Below are positions 8,907-59,384 of a stretch of 64,000 nucleotides of DNA, piece after piece. The notes under the pieces are model-generated. The model ran no database searches. It was given only the letters and a program-made list of their open reading frames with translations, and was not told the origin of the DNA. Each line of letters begins with the position of its first letter. Within the stretch, counting starts at the first letter, position 1. The position numbers and the translations under genes were made by a program. Source of the stretch: Giardia intestinalis (Eukaryota); NCBI GenBank assembly GCA_000002435.2, contig CM018793.1; one strand, 5' to 3'.

Positions 8907-8913
8907 CTTAGGT

Positions 8914-8920: not shown

Positions 8921-9237
8921 GCGTCATTGTGTGTGGCTTATTACGCTGTGCTACTGGGGCTATCTGAGGATCGCCCAGAGGTCGTGCGGGTAATCATCGC
9001 TCCTTCCTGGCCAGTTCAGAGACGAGGGTTGGCTGTGGATGATATAATAGGGATCTCCCTTCACTTGTATACCAGGAGTCTTTTGCGTCCCTCAGTTGTT
9101 CCGCAGAGGTGTGCTCAGTTCGAGTGTGCACGTCGGTCTGTCTAGGATTCAACTTACTTGCCCATCTGCGTCGTCCACCATTGGTGCCACTTCTTGGTCT
9201 ACCGCTCTGATGGCGGAGGGTCCCAGCAGTTAATGAT

Positions 9238-9922: not shown

Positions 9923-9929
9923 TATTTGC

Positions 9930-12521: not shown

Positions 12522-12550
12522 TTTTAGTTTTTTGTGTAGTGGCTGATGCC

Positions 12551-13585: not shown

Positions 13586-13926
13586 TTTTAATATTAGCTT
13601 CAGTACCGACATCAATGGGGGCCTCTACTGGGGCTATCTACTAGGACTATAACCAATTCTTCTCTCTGGCTCTCAGATTTACTATCTCTAATTGATCAAG
13701 GTCTGAATGGTTAACGCAAAAGCTGTCAGCTTGTGAGTCCCCCAGTGCTACATTGCTGAATGGATTTATTATCAACAGCATGAGACAGTTGTACTTAGGT
13801 CTATCAATGACAAATGGAAAGCGTACCTACAAAATAATATATAAAGCATGCGGAAATGGAGCCAACCAATAAGTTTAGATCCCGGCTACTTGTGCTACTA
13901 CTAATATGAAAAATTGTCACTTATTG

Positions 13927-16011: not shown

Positions 16012-16134
16012 AAATCTTGAAATAAGTGGATAGGATGAGTTACAAAGGACTGCAAAGGACTAAAAACACTGGTAAACACAACAGAAGCCAGGGTTTTGGA
16101 GCGCGGCCCACAAGTCCCTGATTTGGATTTAAAA
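16012..16134. promoter_or_regulatory. Divergent promoter region between the ankyrin gene (-) and TOR (+)
   Basis: 123-bp spacer between two divergently oriented ATGs. The AT-rich gatttggatttaaaaATG lies immediately upstream of TOR. Confidence 0.4.
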
Positions 16135-40024: not shown

Positions 40025-40773
40025 AACGAGTGTGCGGGCGGACGGGCGTTCCTGGTGCCTCAGACGACACCCTTCAGAGAGGTGGCCCTGGACCGACGCC
40101 TCGACAGACCGAAGCATCACCCCCAAGTGTGTTGTGCAGATGGACCAGCCCACACGTCACTGAGCCAGACACACTGCACAGAATGAGCGTCGACATGATC
40201 TCGTACTGGCTGACGGACCATCCACAAGAGCGCACTGCGATCATGAGCAGAGGGATGGGCCTCTCCCCTGATACCACCGCATGGGAGTACTCCATCGGCA
40301 TCCACGAACGCGTACTATGACTCCAGGATAGAGGCGCACGGGGAGCGCACCCCCGACAGCAGGGTCGATGGTCCACGTCATGGGGAGACGAAGAGGCACC
40401 CCGAGGAACGGGGTAGACACCCGGGGTCATAGCGTATCCCATCTTCGTCATGGAGCACCAGGGCCCGGGCCACGTGGAGACCAGATCGCCGCAACAGACG
40501 CAAGACCCTGAATAGCAGGTGCCCACCAGTGCCAGACGATAGTTGACTCCGATGGGCCAGAGGAAGGGAGGAACCCTAGAGGTAACGTGAGGAGCAGCGG
40601 CTTCCGGGGGAGCTGGGGCATAGGAGTTCTCCCGCCCGGATCGAGGGCGCCTGATCTTCGGACGCTGGGGCTGGACCCCGGACGGCGAGCGGGAGCCCTG
40701 CCCAGGGCGGTGGCGTTGCAGGGAGATTTACTCGGACAGCAGCTGCAAACTAACCTTGGTAAACAGAGTAAAT
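40025..40773 (-). repeat. Dispersed ~0.7 kb GC-rich repeat, copy C
   Basis: 40087-40773 is near-identical to 9238-9922. 40025-40086 additionally shows ~70% similarity to the reverse complement of 1690-1745, a region copy B lacks. It ends 28 bp upstream of the dynein ATG at 40801 and begins ~320 bp after the HCMP stop. Confidence 0.75.
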
Positions 40774-40800
40774 GAAGCAACTTTAAGAAAAACTCCATTC

Positions 40801-43800
40801 ATGCAAATGCATCAAGCCCGTCACCCCCCGGCAATTCTCCCTGACATAGCGTGCGTTTCTGACCAAGCGCCCATAGGTGTGTCTTCACAGGCCGCCTACA
40901 ATACTGATTCTATGAACGTCGATATTCCTACTTCATTACAGCCAGGGAAACAGCTCCACATTGCTAAGCACAACAGTGTTCTCCACGCTAATATTGCTTT
41001 AATTACAATGATGCTCCAGGAAGCTGGCGCCAGTCCGGAGTTTATTCAGGAGCTGACAAGGTTGAAGCTTCCCCACGCTCGCAGAGAGCCATTTATCGAA
41101 ACCCACATAGATGGAGCTATGACTTCTATTTCCTCTATACTTCCACGACCCAGTGTTTTCGGATATAGCCTTGAGTTCTATGATAAATACGATGACCTTC
41201 TGCAGTTGTCTAATAGGGTTCTCAGTGGAGAAATCTTACATGCTACTATGTATAAGCGCGACATCAGCTCTGATAGTTCACACATCGATTTATCCAATTA
41301 CGCCGTCTATGAGGACTACTCTTTATTTCTAAAGCACTTAGAAACCACTTATGCTATTGAAAATGTCTGTGTTATTGGTTTTAATGAGTCTGAACGGAAG
41401 TTTCTTGTGGCACCAGAAAGTATTTTTGGTGATGGTTCAAATCCGCCTTCAGGAGAGACATTAAGAGGGTCAAGCTATTTGTGCGCTCGCCTTATGCTAA
41501 AGTTTTCTACTACTGACCATCCTTTAGACAGAGATTCTATCTTTTTTAAGCGACTTTTTGAGGCTCATAGGCTCAAGGCGACCGTCGAGCGCTCTTATAT
41601 TTTGCACACGTTTATTACTGCTCTTATTAAGTCTATCCAATACATCGACTCGTTCAGCAGGGGCGAGCTTGGCAGATCGATTACGAACATTCCTCTCTTA
41701 CCAATTATTAAGGCACTAAGATTGAGCCCTGCTCTTATTGCACGTACGGGTTGCGAGGTACAAATAATTCGTGGGATATCCCCTGGCCCAGAGTTTTTTG
41801 AAGATCTTCTCATTAAGTATTTTGCCAAGAACGTAACCATTCAGCAAATCCTAAAGAATAATGTCTTTTACCCGCTTTTAGACTCTCTTCTCACAGATGC
41901 AGAGGTGGACTACAAGCGTGTGCATATCCTTAATTCACTTGGACGCTGCCGTCTTCAAAATGCAGACCTCGACAGGTTTCTTCTAAAGTATGGTATTGAT
42001 AGGCAACTAACAGACTGCGAGTACTTTTTGAAATGTTACAATCATAAGCATGTGTATCCAGTTCTTCAACATAGTACTTCTCGCGGAGGCGTCATTAATA
42101 TGCGAACTGTGCTTGTTGGAACTTTCCCAATCACTGAGCGACAGGTTCATTATAGTGAGAACCAGTCAGCCCATCAGGAGCTCGCATTTAATAGCACCTC
42201 GGATACCCAAGCAACATTAGAGTCTATTGCTTGCCATAAGGAAGCATTTATGAAGGCACGTCTTCATCTAGAAAAACATCACTACTTTTACTCTACCTCT
42301 CTACAAGGTGCCATGTTTCGTTTCAGACTAGATTGTACAGATTTTTTTGGGAGCAATCTCGTGCTGTTTCATCCAATTGTCTTAGGAAGCTCAGCTTGCG
42401 ACTTTGTACGGCATGTCCTCGCATCTGGTGCCCTTGATTCGACGCAGAAGAGCTCTTTTTACTCAAAGATTCTAGACATTTCCGTATCCGACAAGCACTG
42501 CTTACGTAAACAAGACCATGAGATTGCGGATCTCTACCAAAACTTTCTTGAGGAACAGAAGACATTTCACGAAGATCTTCAAGCTACACATTCTCAAGAA
42601 CATGTCAATTTTCGCCGCTTTGGAGATGGAATCCTGTATTCCGATGGGCGTTACGAGTACTATGTGGGAAGACAGCGTATTTTACTGCCTGAAAGTATAA
42701 CTAGTGGCGATTATGTCAGTTGTATTAGAAACATTGCTGAGCATCAGCAGGCTATTTTTCGTCAGCGGGGAGAGAATGTCCTGTCAATTTCTCTCATACA
42801 TAGCGCCACTGATATAGATACCCATATTTACCGAGGCGAGAGCTTCAGTTTCTTTAGGGGCTGGAAGAGCCAATGTCTCTTTGACTCCTTGAATTCTTTT
42901 GTCACTACTATCTATGAAACCATCGACGCAATTTTTCTGCCCCGACTAGCACAGTATCTTTTTCCATTAATGGCTCTCCAGGAAGTAGAGCGTCGTCATG
43001 CCTCCAGAATCTGTGATGAAATTTTTACACAGGCCTTAACAGAAACAATCGATCACACATATGATTTGTTTCTTGAAGCATTAAAAGATAAGCGAAGAAC
43101 ACCTGACTTGAGCTTCATGAATCCAGATGGGTTTATAAACATAAGCTTAACGCAGCAGAAGCAGCAAGGGGGGTGTGGTAACACTTTGCAGCATGCCAAC
43201 GTTCCCCCAGCAGATACCTTACCTAATACTTATATGGATTCCTCTATTGCGACTAGCAAGCTACAAGCATCAATGCCACCCATACAGCTCAGTGACCTTG
43301 AAGTTGTGGGCAAGGATATTATTATTAGGAAGGGAAATAGAGCCTTTCTAGACCCACGAAATAACACGCTGACGCGGCTAGTTAAGGCTATTTTGTTTGA
43401 AATAGAAAAGCTGGCTAACAGAGGAATGAGTTTGTTGGAATATGGCGTTTTTAACTATGAGAATTGGCCCAAAGATGCACTACTCAAGTCATCTACCCCA
43501 ACGTTCCTTTACAACTCTAAGGAGAAGATCAAAGAGCTTATTCTCAATATGATTCACCTGGGTTTGCACAGCGCCGGTACGCTCCCGAAGTATTTGCTCG
43601 AAGTTCCTGTCACTTATCCCATGGATTCGGTCCCCTTGGTTGAAGTTGTTGTTCAGTTAGCTGTCAACCCTGTATCTTCTGACTACTCCGAGTCTATAGG
43701 GCTTTATGCATGTGCTTATGAGGAGACATCTAAAGCTGTTTCCAAATGGTATCAGCAAAACCTCTATCAGTTGGACCTCCTCTTTGAGCAAGTGGCTATC

Positions 43801-46800
43801 AGCTCATTTTTAAAAGAAAGCGAGATAGAAGATCAGCAGCAAGCATCTCCTACCGAGCTCCCAGAGAAGTACACTGTCTTAGAATGCTATAAGGATAAGT
43901 ACACAACAACAGGATATGGCACTAATAGATACCTCCGCAACGATACTGCCTTCCAAGTTTTCGAAAAGAATCCAGAGCCAGACCACAGTCGTACTGATCT
44001 TTCTGTAACATCAGTGACCCAAACAACCTGTCCCAGCGACAATCTTCAGAGCACAATGGCTGAACTGTTAGAAGAGACCATTATCACTGCTAATGATTGC
44101 TTTGTATCGGTTACTGATAGCACGCTACCACACTTTACTTTGGAGCCATCAAAATCAGAATTTATGACCAAGCTTTCTGGACTATTCGACTGTTACGATA
44201 CTTTTGCTTCGCAGTTTGTGTCATTCTATGATAGCATTTCTGTAGATCCAGAAAGGAAGCGCCTAAAACCGCCAGAGTATGCATATGGGTTTAGATATGT
44301 CAAAGAGAAGCGCCACACATGTCTCGACTATACAGAATATTGCTACCAACTGGCCGAAGTTGTTCTAGAGATTTGCAACATAATTTGCTCCGCTATCTTC
44401 AATCGAACGTTGGATGCTAAATTGAAAATGTGGGCAGACATCATCTCCAATGCCATGGACCTTCCCTACTATAACCTGTATCACTCCACAAGCGAAACCA
44501 GCATTGAAGACTTTGACTATGTTCCGTTGCGACCTGTGGGCGTCACATCTTCTTCATCTAATGTTGTGGATAAGAAGGATCATCAATTTGAGGAAGTTGA
44601 CCTTGATATTATCCGAGAAATAACAAGTCCTCTTCAGATCCAAGAGCTTTCGCGAAAGGTGCGTAAAGGTCAGATAGATGTCACAGATAATTTCTTGCAT
44701 AAAATCAAAGCATACTATTATACATCAGAGTATTGGGCAACAGTGAAAAGCACCTTTGATGATAGAATGAGCATCAATGCGTTTCTGAGTCTTGTTGGAA
44801 AAAAATCTGAGGCAACCATGAAAAGAACGGAAGTGCAGGAGCTTATTTCTACCGAGGTTGTTAAAGCTATTATTTATTACCGCAGCATGCAGATACTGGT
44901 CCAAGAGCATCTTTTCCCAGATACTATACGTTACGGATTTATTTGTATCACAACGACGCCAGCTAAGCAGGCAATGGAGCACCGTATTAGTGCAATCCTA
45001 TGTGCATTAGGATCGATTGTAACTGCTCGTGCATGGACACTAATAGAGTATAGCAATAAGATTCTTCAAGCAATACAGATTCAATGTTCGTATACCCCAT
45101 CTGTACCAGTAGAGTGGTATATGCTTAGAAGGTTTGTTAAGTTCTACATAAAGCCGCTTCAGCACTTGATACATGATTTGAACAACGAGGCAGTATCGTA
45201 CTTGAATAACATTCTTACTGTGCTACCTCTAAAGGAGCTTGCCCATATTAAGCCACAGTTTGATCTCAGAATTCATTTAGAAGACCCAGAAAACTGGGCA
45301 GCGGTCATTAAGCGACTGTCTGATCCCGCAGCTGGGGTGCCAGATGAATCAAGGTATGAGTCAGACGTTATCTCCATGGCTAGGACAACACAGTTTTCAT
45401 GGATATTTAATAGGTTTATTGGGCTACGCATGCACACAGATGCGATCTATCATCCATACAAACTGGCGTCTCATCTTTATTCTAGTAGGTCGCCCTTTGG
45501 TCTGAATAAGCTAATTACACAGTCTCTTATTCCATCTACTGAGGGAATCATATCCCAGAGCAAGTACGATCTTCTTATGAACTTGGAGGCGCATCGTGAG
45601 GATCTTACCAAAAGACAGAGTGATCTCCTTGAGCGAGTCGAGGCATTCAGCAAACGAATCCCCGCTCACTTCAATTTTAATGAGGCGAGCCAAGACGTTA
45701 GCTACAAATTCTTTAAGGACGGAGAGGCCCTGCAAGCTGAGCTAGCAAATCTACAACAAGAATCATTGAACTTTATTAATGACGAAATTAGCCTAGAACT
45801 GGCTCCAGGCACATTTCCAGTTATTGATTTGCTCCAGCCCCGCATAGATATGATCCACAGATTCTGGACAATAACGTATGAGCATTGCACAATTCTTCCA
45901 GTTTGGTTTGACTGCCTTCTCTCTGACCTCGCAGCCAAGTATTCTGGAAGACTAAACGAGTTCAAAGAAACAGTTTTTAACAAATATGTCCAGGTTGCAG
46001 ATGTTTTAAGTCTCATTCAAACTGCAGCCCGCAAGGAAAAGTCTAAGACCATGCTTGCAAGCTTAGCAAATGGTGAGAAAATACTTCTAAAGGTGCAGTC
46101 CCACTTAGCGTGGTTTAAACACTACTCCCCTGTCATCGTCGCCCTTTTATCACCGGCACTAAAACGTCGCCACCTAGACCAACTGCGAACGAAAGGAATC
46201 TTTCTAAATCTAGCAGAGCATACTGTTTCCAAATTAGTAGAGCGCAAAGTCTTTCTGGATCTCTCAGAACCTAGCATTCAAGATAAGGGCTTTTCACACA
46301 GAGCAAAACTTATTCTAGAAGTCATAGAACACGCGCAAAAAGAGCACGATATTGAGCTTTCGTTTGGAAAGATTGAAGCAATCTGGAAGACAGTTTCTTT
46401 TGAATTTAAAGTTTTGTCAGGAGATCGCTACAAAAGCTACTCAGCACTTTATTCCACACACAGAGCAGATGTACACAATGTGCCGGCCGTGCATCCACTT
46501 TCGATTGCAAAGGCCAAGGTTCTGGATGAACATGGCCGCGAGCTTTGCCTGAACTTATCCACCAGTGGCTCTAATGACCGTGTACATTCCCAGTTAGACC
46601 TCGAAAAGCGCCCTTATGTGATATCAAATCTGGGATTTATCTTACAATTATATCAAGATCATTTTCTCTTGACCAACAAGCTTTTGCAATCACAACACGT
46701 CACCCCAATGCAACGCGTGATCCAACAGTTTACTGAGAAGCAGCTTATCGTCAAGGAAATCCTTCTATTGATACAGGACATTCAGGATAGCTGGCTTCGA

Positions 46801-49800
46801 CTGTATCCCATCTACGTTGGCAAGTACACGGAGTTCTTTGGCCACAGAGCCACTGAGTTTATCAATCTTACAATCTGCATGCAAACAGTGTTTTTAGGGT
46901 TTATCAATAATTGCAACGTGCAAGGCAATATAACGATCGCCGGGAATCTCAACCAAGTAGATAAGCAAATCGAATTGGGGTTAAGGGATGGCACAATAAA
47001 GTTTTCAGAGGTGCCGCCCAATCAGCTCCTGACGCCTCTTCTTTTTTACTACAAGGCGTTTCTGGATCACTTGAATGCGCGTATGTACTCTCTTGTGGAC
47101 ACTAAGCGCCAAGGATTTTTTAGGTTCACTTTTATGAATACTAATGAAATTGTCAAAATACTCTCTGCTTTACCTGGAAGCGCAGACGCTGTCCTTACTC
47201 CGCTTCTTCATCTATACAGCCTTTCTGACTATTCAATAGAGAAACACAACGAACAGCTTTTACTAACTACTGTTTTCTCAAAAAGTGGTGAGACCATCCG
47301 ACTAGCGGACCCTGTAGATGTCACAAAAGAAGTAGATGTGTGGCTGACCACCTTTGATGATGTGTTCCGCAAAACTATGCGCAAGCTCTTTTATGACCTG
47401 TATGTCGATGTTTTTGTTGATAAGATGGAGCCCAGTGTGGCCTTTCTCAAGTACCCTTCCTGTACCGTTGGGCTGTTTCTTAGGGTCGAGTTCACGCATC
47501 AAATGGACGCGATCTTTGCACAAACAGTTTCGGAGCTAGACACACATCATATGATACTAAGCCTCCTCGATGACATCAACCATAGAATCGTCTTTTTCAA
47601 GCAGCAATTTCTCGCCTGTTCTAACAAGCTCCTCTATAACAACATTCTTGTTGAATTGATGTACTTCAGTAATATCGTCTCAACTATATGCAAGCATCCT
47701 TTGGCTAGGGATAAGAGATTTATCTATTACAGAATCTATAAGTATCGTATTGTTCCCCTCGCTGATGATGCAATTAGTCTTTTGACCAAGACGCTGAGCG
47801 CACTAGGTGATAGCTCTATCAACTCACTCGGCAGTACGTCTCCAGATCAGGATCTGCTTCTCTCTACCAAGGTCATTCACAGAGATATGAATCCATCAGA
47901 CTTTGATGTCCAGATTTCGTGCCTTGGAAACTCCATGCTTTACCGATTCGACTATATTCCGCCCACCACTAGATCGATAGTGACAGAACCAGTTGACCAA
48001 GCAGCTACGTTTATCTTTTCGGCATTTGCTTCGCGATCTGTTGGGGGTTATATCAAGGGAGAGACTGGGAAGACTGAGGCTGTCAAGCACATCGCCTATT
48101 GCCTCGGCTACAAGCCATATATTATCAATCCGACGTATACTGTCCATTTTTCTGAGACTACACTTCACCATATGATGCTCACAGCATGCGCTTTCGGCCT
48201 TTTGATATGCTTTGAGGATGTAGAGAAATTCACAAGTTCGTTGCTAATTACGCTCTCGCGAAATTTGGGTCAGGTATATGGCATTCTTAATTCGTATACA
48301 TCAATTCAAACACTGGCAAACTGTGCTTCCTTACTCCATGACAGCAGTAACCACATGAAGATAGCATTGCCGGCGGAGAATCCAGTCGGTGAAGTGTTCT
48401 TGCATCCTTCTGCGATCTTCTTCCTGACAACCAACACACCGCTTCCACATAGTTTCAATAGGGTTGTTAAACCCTTTAAGTGTCATCTCACAGAGTCTGC
48501 AATCTATCACATAATCCGAACATACATGGATATCGCAGGCCTTACAGAAATTGAATCCGTAACATCACAACTCATGCACATCATGGGAGCTATTAAGCGT
48601 CTTTTTGCCCCATTTTTCGGCCTTAGACATATCAAAGACATTATCAGCGAGATGCTTCTTCTCTCTCAATATACAGGAAGACCCATCAAGAAGGCATTCG
48701 CTGAGCAACCTGCTGCATCTCATTCTGATAATAGTAATGTCACCAATGAAAGGGCCAACACAGGACGTGCAGAACCTACTCTGGAACAGCGAGAACCTAT
48801 CATCAGTGCATCCAAGTTAGTCAACTTAGCAATCAGAACAGTAGTCAGTCCTCTTTTAGCACCAGCTCATCGTGTGCCTTTTTATAACATGCTTGATGCA
48901 GAGTTTGGGGCGATAGCCCTCCCACCCATTACTGAGACGCTGCTGGATGCCGTGAGAGAGATATACATGGACCCGGCATTTTGTCAATCCGTTTATAGAG
49001 AGACAGGCTTAGTTTGTCCTTGCAGTGATCTGGATATTTATGCACAGTCTATCCTTTATACCAACAGTTCTGTCTATCAGGCAGCTCAGACAGAGTTTAT
49101 AACAGACATTAAGTCCTTCATAGAAGTTATAGACCACAATTACGGAACAGTTGTGGTTGGAAACCATCTTTCCGGCAAGACGAGCTTTATCACAATCTGT
49201 TCACAAGTATACGCAAAGCTTTGCGACTATGTTGTTAACTTGCGATTTATTAACTTTTCAAGCATATCTTATCATGAGTTTTTTGGATACTATTCTTTTA
49301 GTGACTGGATTGATGGGATTATTGCTCGCCTTGTTTCTCGTGCGGAGCTGCACGGTTCAAACGAAGTGTCATGGATTATTTGTGACGGTGTGGGAAAGAT
49401 GGATCACCTGGGAAGTATATTGAATGGCACGATGTTCCTACCAAACGGCGAAATTTTACGTTTACCGTCGAACATGAAGTTCATTTTTGAAGTGACCAAT
49501 CTTATGCTGGTTCCAGAAATATTTAGTGCTAAATGCGGATTGTACCAACTGGGAAGACATGACTACACCGAAGGTTACTTACGAAAGCTCGCTTACTCGC
49601 CCATAGTGACAGGCGAGTCAACCTTGAACCCTCTTGAGATGCGTTTGCATGCTGCCTTGCAAGAATCACTTGGGGAGATACCGCGTCCCCGTGGAATTAC
49701 CCTTTATACAGAGGAATCGCTGGATGGCAGCGAAGAGTTCGATTCCTCTCTTAAGCCCTGTGCATCCGAAATTATACTTACTCGGCTTCGTCAGCTGGTG

Positions 49801-52800
49801 CCTCTAGTTAATCTTATTGGCCAGGCAATCATGTACAATGCAGTGCCAGGAAAGGTTTATCGATTCTATAACATTAATCTTACGCACCAGCATAGTGGAA
49901 ACTGCTTGTTCACATTCACGAGCCTTCCGTGTATCCTTGATATGTATTATAAGGTTTTGATATCATCTCTCGTTACCTGGGCGCGACTCACAACGCAACC
50001 TGAGAGACTGACAGAACTTGTCGATATATGTACGGTCTATTCTATTTATAACTCTTTTGGGCTCGTCCTTGTGACGGTAGAGGCCAGGCAATGGTTTGAC
50101 TGGTTTGTGCGGCTGGTATTTAAGCTTGTCTCCGACCACTCGCGGTCATTAACGGAGAGCGAGGTTATTTTTATCCAGCGACATATAAAGGAGATCTTCT
50201 CGGATGACATTATTTCGACTCTTCGCTCTCTCTCCAAGTCTGACAGCTTCAAGCCGAAACTAACCAGCATAGTATGCAACTCGCTACAACTACCGAGCAC
50301 TATCAATATGCCCACAAGTACTGATGTACTTGAAGAGTACATCTTTCGAATACCTTTGCATCAACTCTTCTTTGAAATGCTTTTTGACCCCAAACAATTC
50401 TGCTTTGTGAGCTCATATGATGTCCTTTCTCTTGGCGCACCAGAGTACCTATCCAAGGTTTACTCTCTGAAGTATAATACATATGAAGTTAAGCCATCGT
50501 CTGGTGCGCTTAGATACTATATTTTGGCAACTATGCTTCTCACGTGCGGATATACACTAACAATTCTCGGTAACACGTGTTCCGGAAAATCGTCCTTTGT
50601 ACGTAATCTGTTTATGATGAATCCTTTTCACTTTAGAAATGACTTCCATATTCTCCACATTTCTTCTCTCTCGGAGCAAAATGACCCTGACGTTGCAACC
50701 GTAAACATAAAGAAGCTTGTTAAGTCTAAGCTAAACATGTACACCTCATCCTTCTATGCCCCGTATCCTGGCGCCTGCACCTACCTGATATTTGAAGACG
50801 CAGAGGTGATGCCCGCTGCCTGGTTGGAGGTTGCTCGTGAATATCAACAAAATCAATCCATCTACGATAATAGGACCTATACCATTCTAAAAGATGTGGT
50901 CTTCCTGTTCGTCACTAAGTTTTCTAATGATTTTAGAATTGATGAGCGTTACCTCAAGACCTCCTTCTTCTTACCGTTCTACGATGTCACGGCAGATGAG
51001 ATGCGGCAGATCATTTCCTTCAAGATGAAACTACCGGATCCGCGGCTCACAGAAAAGCTTGTGCTCTGCTCGTATGATCTTCTCCACGAAGTCAATGCTT
51101 ATTTAATAGGCGGCTATTCTACTACAACCGGTACCACTTGCCTCACTACTACTGCGACATTCGCTCCGTTAGTATCGTCCAGGGGAAGCTGTGATCCGGC
51201 GCCTCTTGTTACACTGGAAGTTCTTCTTAATATATCTGACCAGATTGCCAAGTTCATCAAGCAACTCCCCAAGGATATTGACCAAATGACAATAGTCAAG
51301 CTATGGATTCACGAAACGTTCCGCGAATTCACAGATAGTCGTAGCAGAGTATTCTATCGGACATTTACCAGCATTATTTACACCCTTGTACAAAAGCACT
51401 TTGATAGTGAGGTAGCCTCTCGCCTTATTGTTCCTCTTGATGATCAGCATGCAGAAATCTTCGACATCCTAATGAACAAACTTAAAGCCAAGTCGCGAAC
51501 TTTGAGCACTACAGGTTCTTTTATGCTGAACGATCCTGTGAGCTTAAAGGGCCATAATCCTATAGGCCTTCCTGCTATTCAGGAGATTTCTACATCTGAT
51601 GAAGCTGGTTCCGAAAATGAGCATGATGACTTAGAGCAAACTGACGAGAATAACTCTCACTTTGTGCCATTGAATCCAGATGCTTCAGACTTTAATACCA
51701 ATAATAGACTTCAGCTAGAAAAGCGCCATGTTTCTGCGCTGCCCATGTTTACTTATACATTCAATGCTAGTGCCATAAGGCAAGGCTATCAGGATGAAAG
51801 TATTGAGGACTTTGCGTCACGTGCCAGTCTACTGGACGAGCAACATGCACATGAGGACAGTGGTGACTTACCTGCTCTTGTCTCCCTATTAAGGTACACA
51901 GAAGTGACTATGAATGATATGAGCAAAGCCATAGAAGATGCTGATAACGACGACCATGAAGTTGAGGCTCCTGCAAATGGTAAAGGCGAAATCTTAATTC
52001 ACCACGCCAAGCGCAATAGTTGTTTCGTTACGTCTACACAGACTCTGCTTAGTGTGCAACGCATTTCTAGGATTATTGGAACACGGAGTTGTGCAATTAT
52101 TGGAATGGATGGAACTGGCCGGTCCACGTGCCTCCGTCAAGCGGCAGACAACCTCAGGATGGTTATCATCGAATTCGATCCCTTGGTATCCACGTGGACG
52201 AACTTTATTATCAATGCACTCACAAGATCAGTCTTCATGGAACGACTTGTAATCCAACTAAACCAGGAAGATCTGGATTCGCCCGAGATTCTAGAAGACC
52301 TAGAAATGTATTTTTCGACAGGGCTCGTCCATAGAATAGTTGACACAGATGAAAAGATTACCTCTCTTGCTGACTACATCAAGGAGATGCACATGGACCT
52401 TTACGGAACACTAATTGAAGCAGCTCATACGGGAGCCAATGACCTTTTAATTATGTATCGTCGGATACTTGCAGAACGCGTTCGGTTTTCTCTGATACTG
52501 AAGGAGGACTATTACCATATGCTTGCAACTGCATACCCAGTGTTCTTTAAGAATCTTGGGGTGCTAATGTTTGACTATCTTGATAACTCAACTATGGCAG
52601 TTATTGTAACGAAACTCATTCCAGATCTGAAGCCAGAGAAGTTCCTCTTGGATCACGTGATTTCAAAGCTCCACCATATAGGATACGTGGCAATGCTCGC
52701 CTCTAAGGGCAAAAATCGCGGCTGCAACTTCACTAAGCTCTTTGTTAACTTGACGCTGGCCTATTTCTCCCACCACAACAGCTACAAGGAGAAGCTAGCT

Positions 52801-55800
52801 GAGAAGCGTAACTTGTGCTCTATGTCCCTTGAACTATATAATATCATGGGCGTGATGCTGGATGTAACAAGCAAGAAAGAAGTCGGTACGAAAGAGCAAT
52901 CTAAAGCGCTGGAGCAAAAGATAGAAGAAATTGGAGCCCAGTTGAAGGAGGCTATCCTGCGCCAAGCAGAGGCCTCCCAAATGGTAGCGCAAGCTGCTGA
53001 GAAGGTGGCCTATGCTAACAAGCAGATCCACGACTGTTCTTTAAAAGTTGATAGTATTCTGAAACCCTATATGGGGTCAGTGGAGCTTTCTCATCAATAC
53101 TTGCTGAAGCTATCGGCAAAAGAGCTAGGAGCATTTAAGACCTTGACGAGGCCGAATGAAGTCACACAACTTATCTTCAAGGTCATCTATCTGCTGATGG
53201 AAAATACTATTCCAGAAGGCGCTACACTCTATTCCTATTGGATTCCGTGCAGAAAGATAGTGGCAGCGAACGATTTTATTGATCGTGCGATTAATTTAGA
53301 CACAGCTGCGCTCAAGTCGGACATAGTTGATGAGATTCTTTCTTCTATCACATCATCGTCATTCACAGCAGATGCCGCATCGAAAACAAGTGCAACAATG
53401 GGAAATCTTATGGCGTGGTGCAGCTCTGTATGCAAACTTGTCGCAGCCCAGAAGGAGGCTGCTCCTCTGCAGTCACAACTAGATCAACTTCGACAGAACG
53501 GAGCGGATGCTGTATCGTCACAGCAGGTACTAAAGTCACAGCAGGAGCTTGCTGATAAGACAGTTGTACAATTACGTGACTCTATCACACGATGCAAACT
53601 AGAAATAGAAACATTAGGCAAGACGGGCGAGATAATTAGTGAGCGCACTCGCAGAATCAATCTTTTCCTTGGTGCTTTTGCAGACTTGAAGAAGCACTGG
53701 GAGACGGTGACAGAGGATAAAGACTATATGCGCACCACTATCGGAGACAGCTTACTAATCTGTTCGCTAATTAATTACACTGGTTCAATGTCACTACTCG
53801 CAAAGCTAGACTTTTTACTTAAGTGCAAGCAAATTTTAAGTGCTAATGGAATAGCCTATACAGGAAGTGAAATCGACATCGAAAAGGGACACACATACGA
53901 TATGTCAGATCCAGAGGTAGTTGCGTCCCAAGTCCTCGGACTCAAGAGACTGCTTATTACAGAGGAAGAGGAAATGCAGCTAGTATGCCGGGGGCTCAGA
54001 GCAGATGATAATATGATAATTAGTGCTCAGACGATCGACTTTGTTGTCAATGATTTTCAATGCTATCCACTAATTCACGATCCCCACGAATTTCTGCTTC
54101 CATGGCTGAGTGCATTTTCAACCAATTCTCTTAGGGCAAAGCATCTCCTAGCCGGCTTGGCTTCTGCAGCCATTGATGGAAAAATTGGCGATCAAGAGTC
54201 CATACCGGAAACAGTGTTTCTTAACTCGAGTTCCCGAGACTTCTTCGTTAACCTAAGGGCTCATCTTGTCAAAGGCTCTGTCGTTATAGTCCAACTGGCT
54301 CCTTCGTTCGATCAGGCACGAATATCAGGGATTGCAGAGTTACTTTCTCACATGACAGATACTCATACAAAAATTGTTTTCTACAATACTCAGAAAGCCA
54401 ACGATAGTTTCCAGACTTTGTTCAGTAAAAACAAAGCCATCAGAGATTATATATACACGGTCGACATTACATCCTACGATCAACGAAACTATATATTGCT
54501 ACGCCTATCTTCTATCTGCAACCCAGAGATAGATTCGTCTATGGTGAAGCTCTGTGGGGAGTACCTATCTCTTTACACTTCTCGTGATCAAGTCGTCGCC
54601 CCTCGCTTGTACCAAATGATCAAGCATGTTCATACGTCAATGAAAGATCCAGCGATTGGCGAGCTAATACTCGACGATGTGCAGTACTTCGATAAAATGC
54701 TGAGTAGTCTAGAGCAATATCAGATTCAAAGTAGCAATCTTGCGAAACTGATGCGCAGGGTTCAAGAAAAAGAGGTCCAACGCCAGGAATACAGCATTCT
54801 GGCCAGTTGCGCTAGCCATCTTCGCAATATAACAGATCGTTTGACTGACCGCGCTCTGTTTTATCAATATAACTTTGAGAAGGTATTTGGTTTGATTGAG
54901 TCAACTGCAAATCAGTATATGGAGCAACACAGCACCCAGTTAGTACCGCCAGAGGCTGCAGAAGTGTTGATTTACGAGGCAATTTACCTGCTCATTGCAC
55001 CCAGTCTTCACACGAATGAGAAACTTCTTTTCGAGCTCAATATGGCGCTTGTAAAAGAACTTGAGGGAAAACTTTCTGGTTTGCGGCACGATATTTCATC
55101 CAATGATGTTTTGAAGATAATTATCAAAAGCGGAAGTCTCTTGGATCTGGCATTGGATGCGGGTGAAAATCTTCCGCCGAACAAATCGCTTAAAATTACC
55201 GATAGTGCCCTTCAAGCCATATCACGATTAGAGGATGGCTCTGCTTTTGGCCCATATCTGAGTGGTATCTGCAAACATATTCATGATCACCCAGATGCGT
55301 GGGACAAGGCGCTGGATACGATACGCGCTATCGGCAACACTGATCTAGAAGCATACAATCCAGACGTCATCCGGTGTTTTCCATCCTACAGCGTAACTGC
55401 AAAGACGATGCCACTTGCAATCTGGCTGGTTATAACTTATCACCTAGACAAGAGCAAATTCATTGCCGTCGCGAAGTCGTATATTATCAACGTTTTGCCA
55501 TTTGCAAAGACAAACAGGATAAAAGACCACATTATAGATCTTAGACTCAACGGTGAACGAGACTGGAAGCCGTATTTACTCCTTCAGACAGACCCTCAGA
55601 TGATTTTGGACATAGAGCATTTGGCGCGAGCTAGGAATATACATATAACAATGCTTCTTGAAAAGCAGAAGTTGATCGAGTTATGCACTACTAGGACTTG
55701 GGTCCTGCTTCCAGATATTCAGTTTCATGATGATCATGAGTTGCGCTGCCTTATCCTAATGGAGCTACCAGCCATCCATGCCAGCGGCGGCATGCATAGA

Positions 55801-57519
55801 GATTTTAAGTTATTCTTCACCCTATCAGATAGCAAGGCCAAGTTATCCAATGATCTGTTGTTGAATAGCGTTAAGATATATTGGAGTATGCCTCACAATA
55901 TCAAGCAGAACCTTCTAGCAGTTTATGAGGACCACTTCAAAGACATTTACACCAAGTTTGAAGCTGATGAGATGGTCTACGGATCTATTCTGAACAAGCT
56001 CAGCTACTGGCTCCTCTTTGCATTCTTTGTTCTTAACGAACGCCTGACTGCCTCGTCTAGAATCAATGTACTAAGGTTCTATGATTCATTTCACGAGGTA
56101 AGGAATGTGTTCCTACTTGCAATCCAGTCGCTCAGTCGTCCAAAGGTGGTCACAAAGGGTCCAGGAATCGTTCTCGGCATCCCACTTTTGCGCGCTCTAA
56201 ATGCAAACAAACACTTTCAAGAGCAAGGAGTCAAGCACTATGTTCCCACAGAGATCGAGTGCTGCTCTGTTCTTTCTTTCGAGGGTATATATTACATCTT
56301 TGGAGACCTCTACATGAAATCGGAAATACAAGACCAGTATGATGAGGCGTGCTTCGACGCATTACTACGCAGCATCATTACACCGGAACTCTTTGATTCG
56401 GATAAATACCGAACTCATCCTGTCCATGGGCGATACATGATCAATCTTCAGAGCCTCTTTAATATTTCTCAAAGCTCTAATGCAAACATACTTCGCGATA
56501 TAGAGCACTCGGTCACGTCAATCAACCTTCCAGAATTATGGTCTCTCGATGCGTCCCTCTATGATATACTTGCATACCGAGAACTCTGCCTGTTTCTCCA
56601 ATCCAGTACTTCTTCGCGGCATGCTCCGTTTACAAATACAGGCGGCTATCTGGAAAGCACTCCCCACGGACATCGACTAGTCAGCGCTGTGGTAGAGGAC
56701 CAGTGTACCCAGGTCATTAGCACTGAGGTATACCGCAGGCGACTAGAAAAGGAAGTTCAGGCTAATAGTCCGTTAATGTATATCTATTTGGCAATTGAGC
56801 GAGATGTTGCTATTTTTAATCTTCGCATTCGTGCATTCCTACCAAGCATTCTTCAGCAGTCTAAGAAGTTCAGAACAATTATCAATTACTATACCAGCAT
56901 AGCCACCAAGGGATTTACAACAGCTCTGAATCTTGCGACTTTGCAGTCCCCCGCAACGTTCTTCGATGCACTGCGACTATACTACGGTCACAACCTTAAT
57001 GTGGGCTTTAGTAAGATCATCTTGGATATTGTTCCGAAGGCCTACTATTCTCAGAGTAAGGCAGATGAAGTGCTCATGGCGGAATCTATTGCAGACATGT
57101 CCAGAATAAGACCAGCTCCGTCTCCGCGACGCTATGTGGCAATTGATGAGGAAAATGCAACGCTCAGGATGATCGGCTTAAGTGCCTCTGAAAGTGCTGT
57201 AGATGAGGCCATTAATGCATCGTTGGTTGGGGTAGACAGCACTTTTGTTATCAATGGTGTCTACTTAGGCTGCTTTGGTGAAAGCCCGAGTCCGTATCTG
57301 TCGAGCAGACTCCCAGGTGATCCTTTCTCTGCGTCCCCCCTCTGTCTTTCTGTGCGAGGACGCGCCGTCCAACCGGGTGAGACAGCCCCTCTACTTATGT
57401 TTGCACACTCGTGGCCACGCGGGGACCCTGTTTGCAGTACGGCTGATTTTACAGGAACGTTGGATGAATGTAACAAGCACCTCGGTCTATATATGCGAAA
57501 CTACCAACATGACAAGTGA
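40801..57519 (+). CDS. Dynein heavy chain, highly divergent and unusually long (5572 aa)
   Basis: First in-frame ATG at 40801 (the track start 40756 is TTG inside repeat C). AAA1 matches dynein: GGYIKGETGKTEAVKHIAYCLGYKPYIINPTYTV / GLLICFEDVEKF versus GPAGTGKTETTKDLGRALG...VFNC / GAWGCFDEFNRI. Further P-loops sit at dynein-like spacing: AAA2 GNHLSGKTSF, AAA3 GNTCSGKSSFVRNL, AAA4 GMDGTGRSTCLRQAADNL (compare GVGGSGKQSLTRLAA). A coiled-coil stalk follows (...KALEQKIEEIGAQLKEAILRQAEASQMVAQAAEKVAYANKQIHD...), then ~1500 aa more (AAA5/6 and C-terminal region). Confidence 0.8.
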   Translation: MQMHQARHPPAILPDIACVSDQAPIGVSSQAAYNTDSMNVDIPTSLQPGKQLHIAKHNSVLHANIALITMMLQEAGASPEFIQELTRLKLPHARREPFIETHIDGAMTSISSILPRPSVFGYSLEFYDKYDDLLQLSNRVLSGEILHATMYKRDISSDSSHIDLSNYAVYEDYSLFLKHLETTYAIENVCVIGFNESERKFLVAPESIFGDGSNPPSGETLRGSSYLCARLMLKFSTTDHPLDRDSIFFKRLFEAHRLKATVERSYILHTFITALIKSIQYIDSFSRGELGRSITNIPLLPIIKALRLSPALIARTGCEVQIIRGISPGPEFFEDLLIKYFAKNVTIQQILKNNVFYPLLDSLLTDAEVDYKRVHILNSLGRCRLQNADLDRFLLKYGIDRQLTDCEYFLKCYNHKHVYPVLQHSTSRGGVINMRTVLVGTFPITERQVHYSENQSAHQELAFNSTSDTQATLESIACHKEAFMKARLHLEKHHYFYSTSLQGAMFRFRLDCTDFFGSNLVLFHPIVLGSSACDFVRHVLASGALDSTQKSSFYSKILDISVSDKHCLRKQDHEIADLYQNFLEEQKTFHEDLQATHSQEHVNFRRFGDGILYSDGRYEYYVGRQRILLPESITSGDYVSCIRNIAEHQQAIFRQRGENVLSISLIHSATDIDTHIYRGESFSFFRGWKSQCLFDSLNSFVTTIYETIDAIFLPRLAQYLFPLMALQEVERRHASRICDEIFTQALTETIDHTYDLFLEALKDKRRTPDLSFMNPDGFINISLTQQKQQGGCGNTLQHANVPPADTLPNTYMDSSIATSKLQASMPPIQLSDLEVVGKDIIIRKGNRAFLDPRNNTLTRLVKAILFEIEKLANRGMSLLEYGVFNYENWPKDALLKSSTPTFLYNSKEKIKELILNMIHLGLHSAGTLPKYLLEVPVTYPMDSVPLVEVVVQLAVNPVSSDYSESIGLYACAYEETSKAVSKWYQQNLYQLDLLFEQVAISSFLKESEIEDQQQASPTELPEKYTVLECYKDKYTTTGYGTNRYLRNDTAFQVFEKNPEPDHSRTDLSVTSVTQTTCPSDNLQSTMAELLEETIITANDCFVSVTDSTLPHFTLEPSKSEFMTKLSGLFDCYDTFASQFVSFYDSISVDPERKRLKPPEYAYGFRYVKEKRHTCLDYTEYCYQLAEVVLEICNIICSAIFNRTLDAKLKMWADIISNAMDLPYYNLYHSTSETSIEDFDYVPLRPVGVTSSSSNVVDKKDHQFEEVDLDIIREITSPLQIQELSRKVRKGQIDVTDNFLHKIKAYYYTSEYWATVKSTFDDRMSINAFLSLVGKKSEATMKRTEVQELISTEVVKAIIYYRSMQILVQEHLFPDTIRYGFICITTTPAKQAMEHRISAILCALGSIVTARAWTLIEYSNKILQAIQIQCSYTPSVPVEWYMLRRFVKFYIKPLQHLIHDLNNEAVSYLNNILTVLPLKELAHIKPQFDLRIHLEDPENWAAVIKRLSDPAAGVPDESRYESDVISMARTTQFSWIFNRFIGLRMHTDAIYHPYKLASHLYSSRSPFGLNKLITQSLIPSTEGIISQSKYDLLMNLEAHREDLTKRQSDLLERVEAFSKRIPAHFNFNEASQDVSYKFFKDGEALQAELANLQQESLNFINDEISLELAPGTFPVIDLLQPRIDMIHRFWTITYEHCTILPVWFDCLLSDLAAKYSGRLNEFKETVFNKYVQVADVLSLIQTAARKEKSKTMLASLANGEKILLKVQSHLAWFKHYSPVIVALLSPALKRRHLDQLRTKGIFLNLAEHTVSKLVERKVFLDLSEPSIQDKGFSHRAKLILEVIEHAQKEHDIELSFGKIEAIWKTVSFEFKVLSGDRYKSYSALYSTHRADVHNVPAVHPLSIAKAKVLDEHGRELCLNLSTSGSNDRVHSQLDLEKRPYVISNLGFILQLYQDHFLLTNKLLQSQHVTPMQRVIQQFTEKQLIVKEILLLIQDIQDSWLRLYPIYVGKYTEFFGHRATEFINLTICMQTVFLGFINNCNVQGNITIAGNLNQVDKQIELGLRDGTIKFSEVPPNQLLTPLLFYYKAFLDHLNARMYSLVDTKRQGFFRFTFMNTNEIVKILSALPGSADAVLTPLLHLYSLSDYSIEKHNEQLLLTTVFSKSGETIRLADPVDVTKEVDVWLTTFDDVFRKTMRKLFYDLYVDVFVDKMEPSVAFLKYPSCTVGLFLRVEFTHQMDAIFAQTVSELDTHHMILSLLDDINHRIVFFKQQFLACSNKLLYNNILVELMYFSNIVSTICKHPLARDKRFIYYRIYKYRIVPLADDAISLLTKTLSALGDSSINSLGSTSPDQDLLLSTKVIHRDMNPSDFDVQISCLGNSMLYRFDYIPPTTRSIVTEPVDQAATFIFSAFASRSVGGYIKGETGKTEAVKHIAYCLGYKPYIINPTYTVHFSETTLHHMMLTACAFGLLICFEDVEKFTSSLLITLSRNLGQVYGILNSYTSIQTLANCASLLHDSSNHMKIALPAENPVGEVFLHPSAIFFLTTNTPLPHSFNRVVKPFKCHLTESAIYHIIRTYMDIAGLTEIESVTSQLMHIMGAIKRLFAPFFGLRHIKDIISEMLLLSQYTGRPIKKAFAEQPAASHSDNSNVTNERANTGRAEPTLEQREPIISASKLVNLAIRTVVSPLLAPAHRVPFYNMLDAEFGAIALPPITETLLDAVREIYMDPAFCQSVYRETGLVCPCSDLDIYAQSILYTNSSVYQAAQTEFITDIKSFIEVIDHNYGTVVVGNHLSGKTSFITICSQVYAKLCDYVVNLRFINFSSISYHEFFGYYSFSDWIDGIIARLVSRAELHGSNEVSWIICDGVGKMDHLGSILNGTMFLPNGEILRLPSNMKFIFEVTNLMLVPEIFSAKCGLYQLGRHDYTEGYLRKLAYSPIVTGESTLNPLEMRLHAALQESLGEIPRPRGITLYTEESLDGSEEFDSSLKPCASEIILTRLRQLVPLVNLIGQAIMYNAVPGKVYRFYNINLTHQHSGNCLFTFTSLPCILDMYYKVLISSLVTWARLTTQPERLTELVDICTVYSIYNSFGLVLVTVEARQWFDWFVRLVFKLVSDHSRSLTESEVIFIQRHIKEIFSDDIISTLRSLSKSDSFKPKLTSIVCNSLQLPSTINMPTSTDVLEEYIFRIPLHQLFFEMLFDPKQFCFVSSYDVLSLGAPEYLSKVYSLKYNTYEVKPSSGALRYYILATMLLTCGYTLTILGNTCSGKSSFVRNLFMMNPFHFRNDFHILHISSLSEQNDPDVATVNIKKLVKSKLNMYTSSFYAPYPGACTYLIFEDAEVMPAAWLEVAREYQQNQSIYDNRTYTILKDVVFLFVTKFSNDFRIDERYLKTSFFLPFYDVTADEMRQIISFKMKLPDPRLTEKLVLCSYDLLHEVNAYLIGGYSTTTGTTCLTTTATFAPLVSSRGSCDPAPLVTLEVLLNISDQIAKFIKQLPKDIDQMTIVKLWIHETFREFTDSRSRVFYRTFTSIIYTLVQKHFDSEVASRLIVPLDDQHAEIFDILMNKLKAKSRTLSTTGSFMLNDPVSLKGHNPIGLPAIQEISTSDEAGSENEHDDLEQTDENNSHFVPLNPDASDFNTNNRLQLEKRHVSALPMFTYTFNASAIRQGYQDESIEDFASRASLLDEQHAHEDSGDLPALVSLLRYTEVTMNDMSKAIEDADNDDHEVEAPANGKGEILIHHAKRNSCFVTSTQTLLSVQRISRIIGTRSCAIIGMDGTGRSTCLRQAADNLRMVIIEFDPLVSTWTNFIINALTRSVFMERLVIQLNQEDLDSPEILEDLEMYFSTGLVHRIVDTDEKITSLADYIKEMHMDLYGTLIEAAHTGANDLLIMYRRILAERVRFSLILKEDYYHMLATAYPVFFKNLGVLMFDYLDNSTMAVIVTKLIPDLKPEKFLLDHVISKLHHIGYVAMLASKGKNRGCNFTKLFVNLTLAYFSHHNSYKEKLAEKRNLCSMSLELYNIMGVMLDVTSKKEVGTKEQSKALEQKIEEIGAQLKEAILRQAEASQMVAQAAEKVAYANKQIHDCSLKVDSILKPYMGSVELSHQYLLKLSAKELGAFKTLTRPNEVTQLIFKVIYLLMENTIPEGATLYSYWIPCRKIVAANDFIDRAINLDTAALKSDIVDEILSSITSSSFTADAASKTSATMGNLMAWCSSVCKLVAAQKEAAPLQSQLDQLRQNGADAVSSQQVLKSQQELADKTVVQLRDSITRCKLEIETLGKTGEIISERTRRINLFLGAFADLKKHWETVTEDKDYMRTTIGDSLLICSLINYTGSMSLLAKLDFLLKCKQILSANGIAYTGSEIDIEKGHTYDMSDPEVVASQVLGLKRLLITEEEEMQLVCRGLRADDNMIISAQTIDFVVNDFQCYPLIHDPHEFLLPWLSAFSTNSLRAKHLLAGLASAAIDGKIGDQESIPETVFLNSSSRDFFVNLRAHLVKGSVVIVQLAPSFDQARISGIAELLSHMTDTHTKIVFYNTQKANDSFQTLFSKNKAIRDYIYTVDITSYDQRNYILLRLSSICNPEIDSSMVKLCGEYLSLYTSRDQVVAPRLYQMIKHVHTSMKDPAIGELILDDVQYFDKMLSSLEQYQIQSSNLAKLMRRVQEKEVQRQEYSILASCASHLRNITDRLTDRALFYQYNFEKVFGLIESTANQYMEQHSTQLVPPEAAEVLIYEAIYLLIAPSLHTNEKLLFELNMALVKELEGKLSGLRHDISSNDVLKIIIKSGSLLDLALDAGENLPPNKSLKITDSALQAISRLEDGSAFGPYLSGICKHIHDHPDAWDKALDTIRAIGNTDLEAYNPDVIRCFPSYSVTAKTMPLAIWLVITYHLDKSKFIAVAKSYIINVLPFAKTNRIKDHIIDLRLNGERDWKPYLLLQTDPQMILDIEHLARARNIHITMLLEKQKLIELCTTRTWVLLPDIQFHDDHELRCLILMELPAIHASGGMHRDFKLFFTLSDSKAKLSNDLLLNSVKIYWSMPHNIKQNLLAVYEDHFKDIYTKFEADEMVYGSILNKLSYWLLFAFFVLNERLTASSRINVLRFYDSFHEVRNVFLLAIQSLSRPKVVTKGPGIVLGIPLLRALNANKHFQEQGVKHYVPTEIECCSVLSFEGIYYIFGDLYMKSEIQDQYDEACFDALLRSIITPELFDSDKYRTHPVHGRYMINLQSLFNISQSSNANILRDIEHSVTSINLPELWSLDASLYDILAYRELCLFLQSSTSSRHAPFTNTGGYLESTPHGHRLVSAVVEDQCTQVISTEVYRRRLEKEVQANSPLMYIYLAIERDVAIFNLRIRAFLPSILQQSKKFRTIINYYTSIATKGFTTALNLATLQSPATFFDALRLYYGHNLNVGFSKIILDIVPKAYYSQSKADEVLMAESIADMSRIRPAPSPRRYVAIDEENATLRMIGLSASESAVDEAINASLVGVDSTFVINGVYLGCFGESPSPYLSSRLPGDPFSASPLCLSVRGRAVQPGETAPLLMFAHSWPRGDPVCSTADFTGTLDECNKHLGLYMRNYQHDK

Positions 57520-57575
57520 ACTTGTAGTGTACAGCTGTCCAATCAACCGGGAAGAATTTACCAAAGCATGTTGCA

Positions 57576-59312: not shown

Positions 59313-59384
59313 TCCGGTGTGGTATAACGGCTAGCATGACTGGTTTTCACCCAGTAGATCCGGGTTCGATTCCCGGCATCGGAG
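59313..59384 (+). tRNA. tRNA-Glu (anticodon UUC)
   Basis: Hand-folded. Acceptor stem TCCGGTG/CATCGGA has 7 bp with one G-U. U8 is present. Anticodon stem ACTGG/CCAGT. Anticodon loop TTTTCAC carries U33, anticodon TTC and A37. Variable loop is 4 nt. T-arm is CCGGG-TTCGATT-CCCGG. Discriminator is G. Overall close to yeast tRNA-Glu (TCCGATATAGTGTAACGGCTA...TTTCAC...GGTTCGACTCC...TATCGGAG). The D-stem is weak (2 W-C/wobble plus 1 mismatch). No encoded CCA. It lies 64 bp upstream of the UPRT ATG on the opposite strand and 4 bp from the stop of the triple-RING gene. Confidence 0.7.

Follow-up and report, generated by a model that had tools for sequence, protein, structure and literature searches.

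An oversized orphan dynein heavy chain in Giardia intestinalis with altered nucleotide sites

A 64,000-nucleotide (nt) stretch of the Giardia intestinalis genome (contig CM018793.1 of assembly GCA_000002435.2), which we refer to as the window, carries at 40801–57519 on the plus strand a complete open reading frame (ORF) for an orphan dynein heavy chain of 5572 amino acids (aa), followed by a TGA stop codon. As judged from profile alignments, the encoded protein is a complete dynein motor: six AAA+ modules follow a linker, the stalk with its microtubule-binding domain has the canonical length, and the chain ends in a putative, degenerate C-terminal domain. The gene is intact and under strong purifying selection, and its unusual features are a family trait rather than an artefact of assembly. 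Its AAA1 nucleotide site differs from that of canonical dyneins at residues that are fixed within the family, and the reading we favour, with a probability of about one-half, is that the protein would act as a slow or non-cycling, nucleotide-gated microtubule-binding heavy chain anchored via a lineage-specific tail. Public records already list the gene as a dynein heavy chain; the conserved remodelling of AAA1, the weakened AAA3 and AAA4 sites and the distant full-length orthologue described below appear to be undescribed.

Architecture of the heavy chain

A profile of four aligned Giardia orthologues was compared with 27 canonical heavy chains. hhalign returned one collinear alignment of residues 1599–5209 to residues 1042–3956 of P0009, a fish dynein-2 reference, with a probability of 100%, an E value of 8e-76 and 17% identity; against another comparator set the collinear alignment reached residue 5489. 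Because the P0009 alignment runs over the linker, all six AAA modules and the stalk, it bears out the dynein identity proposed in a preliminary description of this DNA, which had been made from the sequence alone. The mapping to dynein Pfam families proposed there succeeded in part, with DHC_N2 (E values of 4.5e-14 and 6e-23; bit scores of 52.6 and 81.8, cut-off 31.9) and the first 135 positions of AAA_6 (E = 7e-11; 42.2 bits against a cut-off of 25.2) above threshold and AAA_7 just under its cut-off, but AAA_8, MT, AAA_9, AAA_lid_11, Dynein_C and DHC_N1 did not score anywhere in the protein. A sequence search of the PDB with phmmer matched 41 distinct sequences, essentially all of them dynein heavy chains (one deposited under a different name), with the strongest matches in AAA2 and the stalk. 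Midasin/Rea1 and RNF213 likewise have six concatenated AAA+ modules but are without a dynein linker and a coiled-coil stalk with microtubule-binding domain; as both elements are present here and no search matched either protein, we rejected a midasin/Rea1 or RNF213-type identity.

Projecting the Pfam boundaries of P0009 through the hhalign alignment gave a full domain map, all on the plus strand. The linker (DHC_N2) lies at 45835–47400 (aa 1679–2200, by Pfam as well as by projection) and the AAA1 module, matched by Pfam AAA_6, at 47941–49143 (from aa 2381 to about 2781–2794). AAA2 with its lid, the best-conserved module, occupies 49144–50121 (aa 2782–2912, lid to 3107), AAA3 with its lid 50539–51357 (aa 3247–3394, lid 3410–3519) and AAA4 51973–52773 (aa 3725–3991). 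The coiled-coil stalk and microtubule-binding domain follow at 52813–53790 (aa 4005–4330), then AAA5 at 53980–55560 (aa 4394–4920), AAA6 with its lid at 55561–56427 (aa 4921–5027, lid 5066–5209) and a putative, very divergent C-terminal domain at 56428–57516 (aa 5210–5572). At 326 aa the stalk is close to the 322 aa of the reference, and both prolines at its junctions are retained, as are the GDxLL..Y.G motif and an AAA5 start resembling RWPLxIDP. The translation and the alignment together confirmed the earlier placement of the AAA2–AAA4 P-loops and of a coiled-coil stalk after them.

The C-terminal domain is the weakest part of this map. Aligned alone, the last 363 aa gave an hhalign probability of 43% and an E value of 2.4e-4, a weak match, with YGGRvtD-like and PqsFLtA-like motifs recognisable. 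An AlphaFold2 (AF2) model of aa 4900–5572 from 17 sequences had a mean predicted local distance difference test score (pLDDT) of 46.8, with 65–88 in the AAA6 large domain and less than 50 in the C-terminal domain. The top 50 PDB matches retrieved with this model by Foldseek were all dyneins, a result that is partly circular, as the input alignment itself contained canonical dyneins. The AF2 model of the tail (aa 1–1200), from a 5-sequence alignment, had a mean pLDDT of 29.5 and was unusable.

Much of the unusual length lies ahead of the motor: the AAA1 lysine is residue 2424, against 1692 in P0009. The first 1370 aa (40801–44910, plus strand) form an orphan N-terminal tail without a known family. 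Pfam gave no match to this segment even at E ≤ 5, and hhalign comparison with dynein-2, outer-arm-like and other DHC_N1-type tails gave probabilities below 3%. It is followed by a neck at 44911–45834 (plus strand; aa 1371–1678), and residues 1370–1693 align with the neck of single-headed inner-arm-type (DNAH3-type) heavy chains with an hhalign probability of 94% and an E value of 1.5e-7.

The motor itself is also enlarged. Relative to the dynein-2 reference it contains 18 insertions of at least 15 aa, 708 aa in total, located in the linker, around AAA1, between the AAA2 lid and AAA3 (aa 2998–3067, 3109–3165 and 3181–3220), between the AAA3 lid and AAA4, just after the stalk, in AAA5 and in the AAA6 lid. 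The largest (51505–51903, plus strand; aa 3569–3701), between the AAA3 lid and AAA4, is acidic and rich in Ser and Asn; no insertion of at least 15 aa relative to the same reference was found within the stalk with its microtubule-binding domain or in the rest of AAA4. The preliminary description had placed the extra length in the tail and in the span from AAA1 to AAA4. That span is indeed 1350 aa, compared with 959 aa in P0009, but insertions also occur in the linker and after the stalk. A search of the gene for tandem repeats found none, which ruled them out as the source of the extra length. Overall, the protein shares with canonical heavy chains the order of linker, AAA1–AAA6, stalk and microtubule-binding domain between AAA4 and AAA5, and putative C-terminal domain, together with four P-loops, the stalk length and the AAA2 module; it differs from them in its roughly 17% identity, in reaching the cut-off of only 2 of about 10 motor Pfam models, in being without a DHC_N1 tail and in the approximately 700 aa of insertions in its motor.

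Orthologues and nucleotide sites

A public read assembly contains a sequence 100% identical to the protein, and orthologues of nearly the same length are found in Giardia lamblia P15, of assemblage E (P0002; 5567 aa, 91% identity, annotated "Dynein heavy chain, putative"), in assemblage B (P0003; 5568 aa, 82% identity, annotated "Dynein heavy chain") and in a Giardia-like lineage (P0004; 5553 aa, 76% identity). Across these four Giardia lineages, identity per 100 aa ranged from 64 to 95%, even along the protein, with the peak of 95% in AAA1. An exhaustive HMMER search with aa 1720–2919 against 1.8 billion representative proteins gave 449 matches at E ≤ 1e-3, with one outlier far above the canonical dyneins: P0055, a protein of 5306 aa (E = 9e-150). 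It is about 30% identical to the Giardia protein and collinear with it from residue 3 to the C terminus, including the tail, which is conserved at about 29% identity, and most of the motor insertions are common to both. The P0055 gene lies at 2475–18395 of a 25-kb Logan contig (SRR31929897; L001) with 44.6% GC, the standard genetic code and an AT-rich stretch 5' of its ATG; its neighbours differ from those in Giardia, with an ABC transporter downstream where Giardia has PCNA. Used as a query, P0055 matched only itself, and family-specific peptide patterns detected no further relatives in JGI metagenome contigs. A word-indexed protein search with the tail (aa 1–1650) likewise gave no match, yet the 91%-identical orthologue is in that database, so we treat this result as a miss rather than an absence. 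On the alignment evidence, the oversized architecture is ancestral to this small family.

We compared the gene with its P15 counterpart by the Nei–Gojobori method and obtained a ratio of non-synonymous to synonymous substitution (dN/dS) of 0.078 for the whole gene (dN 0.044, dS 0.56). The ratio was 0.10 in the tail, 0.063 in AAA1 and 0.13 in the stalk, and the tested insertions ranged from 0.065 to 0.28, including 0.12 for the large acidic insertion (aa 3569–3701) and 0.065 for those between AAA2 and AAA3. The unusual length, the thin Pfam coverage (DHC_N2, part of AAA_6, and AAA_7 below its cut-off) and the repeat directly upstream of the gene could be taken as signs of a decaying "ghost" gene, or of an assembly or annotation artefact that joins an upstream gene to a dynein. 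We regard this as exceedingly improbable, as the 16.7-kb ORF is intact and collinear from the N terminus in four Giardia lineages and in P0055, from independent assemblies, dN/dS is uniformly low, the gene is free of tandem repeats and the synteny downstream of it is preserved in P15. In particular, the collinearity with P0055 from residue 3, in an independent assembly and at only 30% identity, together with the uniformly low dN/dS, excludes a mis-joined upstream gene, a hidden frameshift or a decaying ghost, and on the same grounds we rejected a pseudogene. The mis-join that the preliminary description had named as its own possible undoing can therefore be set aside, and its single uninterrupted ORF was recovered as a 5572-residue translation with no internal stop codon.

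The nucleotide sites were then read column by column, comparing the five family sequences with the 27 canonical ones. All four P-loops are present: GETGKT in AAA1 (aa 2420–2425, K2424; core GKT at 2423–2425), GNHLSGKT in AAA2 (K2793; core GKT at 2792–2794), GNTCSGKS in AAA3 (K3263; core GKS at 3262–3264) and GMDGTGRS in AAA4 (R3774; core GRS at 3773–3775). The AAA1 P-loop, GGYIKGETGKTE (48043–48078, plus strand), is two residues shorter than the canonical GGxPxGPAGTGKTE. That of P0055 is GGYISGPSGKTE, and in the alignment (GGYIKG--ETGKTE in Giardia, GGYISG--PSGKTE in P0055) the same two residues are gone from both. The Gly three residues before the P-loop Lys, present in 27 of 27 canonical sequences, is Glu or Pro in the family. 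The AAA1 Walker B motif reads LICFED (48202–48219, plus strand; CFEDVEKF at aa 2470–2477) in place of the canonical xxCFDE; the Asp and the Glu are each invariant in the canonical set (27/27), and all five family members have Cys, Phe or Leu, Glu and Asp in these columns. The two departures singled out in the preliminary description, GETGKT for Walker A and FED for FDE in Walker B, were thus both upheld, the first as a two-residue deletion and the second as a swap common to the family.

Two further elements of the AAA1 site are changed. The sensor-I strand FLTTNTPLP (48421–48447, plus strand) keeps its Asn in Giardia, though not in P0055, and the PGYAGRxE loop that comes next (9 aa) is deleted in both lineages; this loop holds a tyrosine described as a phosphate-release backdoor (PMC11785096). 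At the arginine-finger position of AAA2 the canonical SRCG is replaced by SAKCG (49525–49539, plus strand), with Lys2911 in place of an Arg that is found in 27/27 canonical sequences; Lys is present in 5/5 family members. The sensor-II Arg is kept in all five. AAA1 therefore does not have the canonical set of GPAGTGKT, Walker B DE, sensor-I loop and AAA2 Arg finger, and the combination of a short P-loop with ED occurs only in this family among 219 dynein sequences, family copies included.

Among the remaining sites, AAA2 looks canonical. AAA3 retains the Walker B Asp and has Ala (Thr in P0055) at the catalytic position, where canonical dyneins have Asp or Glu. In AAA4 the P-loop is GMDGTGRST (usually GxGR[ST]), and Gln replaces the Walker B acidic residue; the P-loop Arg is normal, being present in 17 of the 27 canonical dyneins.

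Class affinity and possible function

Top matches were spread over inner-arm dyneins, dynein-2 and dynein-1 with near-equal scores a few bits apart, and group-wise hhalign scores tracked the diversity of the alignments rather than dynein class. With none of the nine canonical classes standing out in three independent searches, a tail that matched nothing and most insertions common to P0055, the protein fits the orphan class with lineage-specific insertions that had been suggested from the sequence. The protein could instead be an axonemal dynein that evolves fast, perhaps one of single-headed inner-arm descent, docked on axonemes and working in the ordinary way, its motif changes being tolerated noise. 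The DNAH3-type alignment of the neck fits such an origin, many of the named top matches were DNAH3, DNAH1 or DNAH12, the best PDB matches were Chlamydomonas inner-arm dyneins, and most orphan dyneins have been argued to be axonemal (Kollmar 2016; PMC5100056). However, the gaps between classes amount to only a few bits, with dynein-2 and yeast dynein-1 among the best matches of the exhaustive search, level with inner-arm dyneins; the first 1370 aa match no axonemal tail; and one diplomonad orphan is the exception to Kollmar's axonemal argument (PMC5100056). Moreover, the motif changes are unlike noise because they affect residues that are invariant in canonical dyneins and are fixed in the family. 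An ordinary axonemal dynein is accordingly an improbable explanation.

Earlier surveys had met such proteins. Wickstead and Gull (2007) reported divergent Giardia heavy chains with unstable placement (PMC2239267), and Kollmar (2016) listed unclassified dyneins of Giardia and Spironucleus, one of which was the only orphan with a tail that aligned to no class, as is the case for aa 1–1370 here (PMC5100056). That tail-unmatched diplomonad orphan is likely to be the present gene. Hydrolysis sites were not analysed in that study, which stated that Giardia is without a cytoplasmic DHC1 (PMC5100056), and Karnkowska et al. (2019) restated that it is without dynein-1 intermediate and light-intermediate chains and dynactin (PMC6759080).

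In the function we favour, the protein would bind ATP and microtubules, with ATP turnover that is slow or, in its canonical form, absent. It would not be a fast motor but a microtubule tether or regulator gated by nucleotide, and through its lineage-specific tail it would be attached to a partner or structure specific to Giardia. Nucleotide and microtubule binding are likely because the linker and the stalk with its microtubule-binding domain are intact and constrained and all four P-loops keep their Lys or Arg, and turnover is predicted to be slow or absent because no site has the full canonical catalytic set. In yeast dynein, an E-to-Q mutant of the AAA1 Walker B motif is inactive, as is a double E-to-Q mutant of AAA3 and AAA4 (bioRxiv 10.1101/2020.09.22.308700); canonical yeast motor domains turn over at about 4–8 s-1. 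DNAHX, a heavy chain whose AAA1 motifs and sensor-I loop are both altered, retains ATP without hydrolysing it (PMC11785096).

Several observations weigh against slow or absent turnover. The AAA1 changes are shared by lineages with just 30% identity, and no other 100-aa block of the protein is as conserved as AAA1 (95%); conservation of this kind is the signature of a site that still has some function. This contrasts with DNAHX, the AAA1 motifs of which "vary substantially" between orthologues (PMC11785096). The stalk, the linker and the AAA2 segment have all been preserved, in keeping with retained mechanical coupling, and Mg2+ coordination and the activation of water might still be possible with Glu-Asp instead of Asp-Glu. 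Lys2911 is the putative finger of the AAA1 site, assigned by AAA+ topology. We found no functional study of the protein, and no biochemical, expression or localisation data for it, in the sources searched.

Some of these observations would also suit a fully active motor with an alternative AAA1 geometry (in which the P-loop is short, Glu is used for Mg2+, Asp acts as base and Lys as finger), acting as a dynactin-independent cytoplasmic minus-end motor with its tail replacing the missing adaptors. Three or four AAA1 changes are co-conserved over a deep divergence in the most constrained part of the protein, which looks compensatory rather than like decay, and the altered residues stay fixed, unlike the DNAHX motifs, which drift from one orthologue to another; the stalk, the linker and AAA2 also remain intact. 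The literature is split on whether Giardia has a dynein-1 heavy chain but agrees that the dynein-1 intermediate and light-intermediate chains and dynactin are missing (PMC2239267, PMC5100056, PMC6759080). Nevertheless, none of the searches links the protein to the cytoplasmic dynein-1 class, near the tail the only similarity is to the necks of single-headed inner-arm-type dyneins, the phosphate-release sensor-I loop is missing, and AAA3 and AAA4 are without catalytic residues, a state whose yeast equivalent, the double mutant, is inactive. Full activity is thus possible but, on balance, unlikely.

A tethering role for a divergent heavy chain would have parallels. DNAHX of the sea urchin (Chai et al. 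2025; PMC11785096) is likewise oversized (5272 aa) by many insertions, has non-canonical AAA1 motifs including the sensor-I loop and has been proposed to be non-motile. It differs from the Giardia protein in its origin from the animal outer-arm alpha chain, an unrelated lineage, and in carrying insertions in the stalk with its microtubule-binding domain and in AAA4S, where the Giardia protein has none of at least 15 aa and a stalk of canonical length. DNAHX also keeps Walker B while its AAA1 motifs vary, whereas the Giardia family has Walker B swapped to ED and its motifs fixed. DNHD1, a vertebrate orphan (Kollmar class 11), has long been known as a "ghost" dynein; its insertions are disordered and its AAA1 Walker B is degenerate, yet it functions in flagella (as described in PMC11785096). 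It is restricted to other lineages, and no DNHD1-named protein was among our matches. The likeness to DNAHX and DNHD1 would be one of function and architecture only, being drawn from their descriptions rather than from sequence.

We also put forward, with still more reserve than the active motor, that the principal ATP site has been re-engineered rather than inactivated (GxxGKT, Glu-Asp, a Lys finger and no backdoor loop) and then held fixed by selection. Such a site may represent a previously unseen catalytic solution in AAA+ motors, or it may belong to an ATP-sensing, non-stepping microtubule anchor for Giardia's peculiar microtubule organelles, which might fill roles belonging to the cytoplasmic dynein-1/dynactin system, absent from Giardia. 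AAA1 is essentially invariant across eukaryotes, and a family in which different residues are fixed is a natural experiment on which parts of the dynein cycle are indispensable. If the favoured function, a slow or non-cycling microtubule-binding heavy chain, is correct, the protein would be a protist addition to the recently recognised "non-motile" heavy chains DNAHX and DNHD1. It is in addition a large, parasite-restricted and strongly constrained cytoskeletal protein in an organism that has eight flagella, a ventral disc and a median body and is without dynactin.

Gene ends, upstream repeat and neighbouring genes

The reading frame extends back to a mechanical TTG start at 40756 (40756–57519, plus strand, in the ORF list), and the first ATG is at 40801. 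A second ATG at 40807–40809 (plus strand) encodes Met3, which is an invariant column among the orthologues. Because the first ATG reads ATA in P15 and every orthologue (5/5) begins at the second Met, the conserved translation start is probably 40807. At the other end, AGTGAAC at 57514–57520 overlaps the dynein stop codon; we take it to fit the Giardia poly(A) signal consensus AGTRAAY. The gap between the dynein stop codon and the convergent PCNA gene is just 56 nt.

Self-blastn of the window identified three copies of a GC-rich repeat, up to 687 nt long: A at 1031–1519 (inverted; about 91–93% identical to B and C), B at 9238–9922 (98.4% identical to C) and C at 40087–40773. Copy C matched nothing in Pfam or Rfam. 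It ends 27 nt 5' of the dynein ATG at 40801, in agreement with the closeness noted in the preliminary description. The further remark that the promoter-proximal region is itself a repeat copy stands only in part. The repeat does abut the gene, but the identity between B and C ends exactly at 40773, and the AT-rich 27 nt right before the ATG, GAAGCAACTTTAAGAAAAACTCCATTC (40774–40800, plus strand), are unique. Giardia promoters are short and AT-rich, and on this basis the 27 nt are a candidate initiator region. In addition, the near-identical copy B ends not at a gene start but at the 3' end of an opposite-strand gene, where a minus-strand ORF has its stop codon. Both B and C are located 3' of a gene for a cysteine-rich surface protein. 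In P15 a 76%-identical stretch is present upstream of the dynein orthologue, on a contig that breaks 546 nt upstream; because of this homologue, we read the repeat as an old neighbour of the dynein gene; it is not demonstrably its promoter.

Other genes in the window encode a NEK-type kinase with ankyrin repeats, a VSP, an ankyrin-repeat protein, TOR, EGF-rich cysteine-rich proteins, PCNA, UPRTase and a RING protein. This gene content is typical of Giardia and, with the orthologue identities, marks the window as assemblage A-like G. intestinalis. The TOR kinase homologue (16096–25818, plus strand) is a single ORF of up to 3240 aa from its mechanical start, with mTOR_dom, FAT, FRB, PI3_PI4_kinase and FATC domains. 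Three minus-strand ORFs, at 29693–33895, 9930–12521 and 12551–13615 (1400, 863 and 354 aa, respectively), had no Pfam match at E ≤ 1e-3. A tRNA gene (59313–59384, plus strand; Rfam RF00005, 55.5 bits) lies between the UPRTase and RING-finger genes. The VSP gene (4917–8906, plus strand; Pfam VSP, E = 8e-95) contains 12 head-to-tail units of 225 nt (75 aa), 11 of which are 100% identical, which suggests a very recent expansion or homogenisation of the array.

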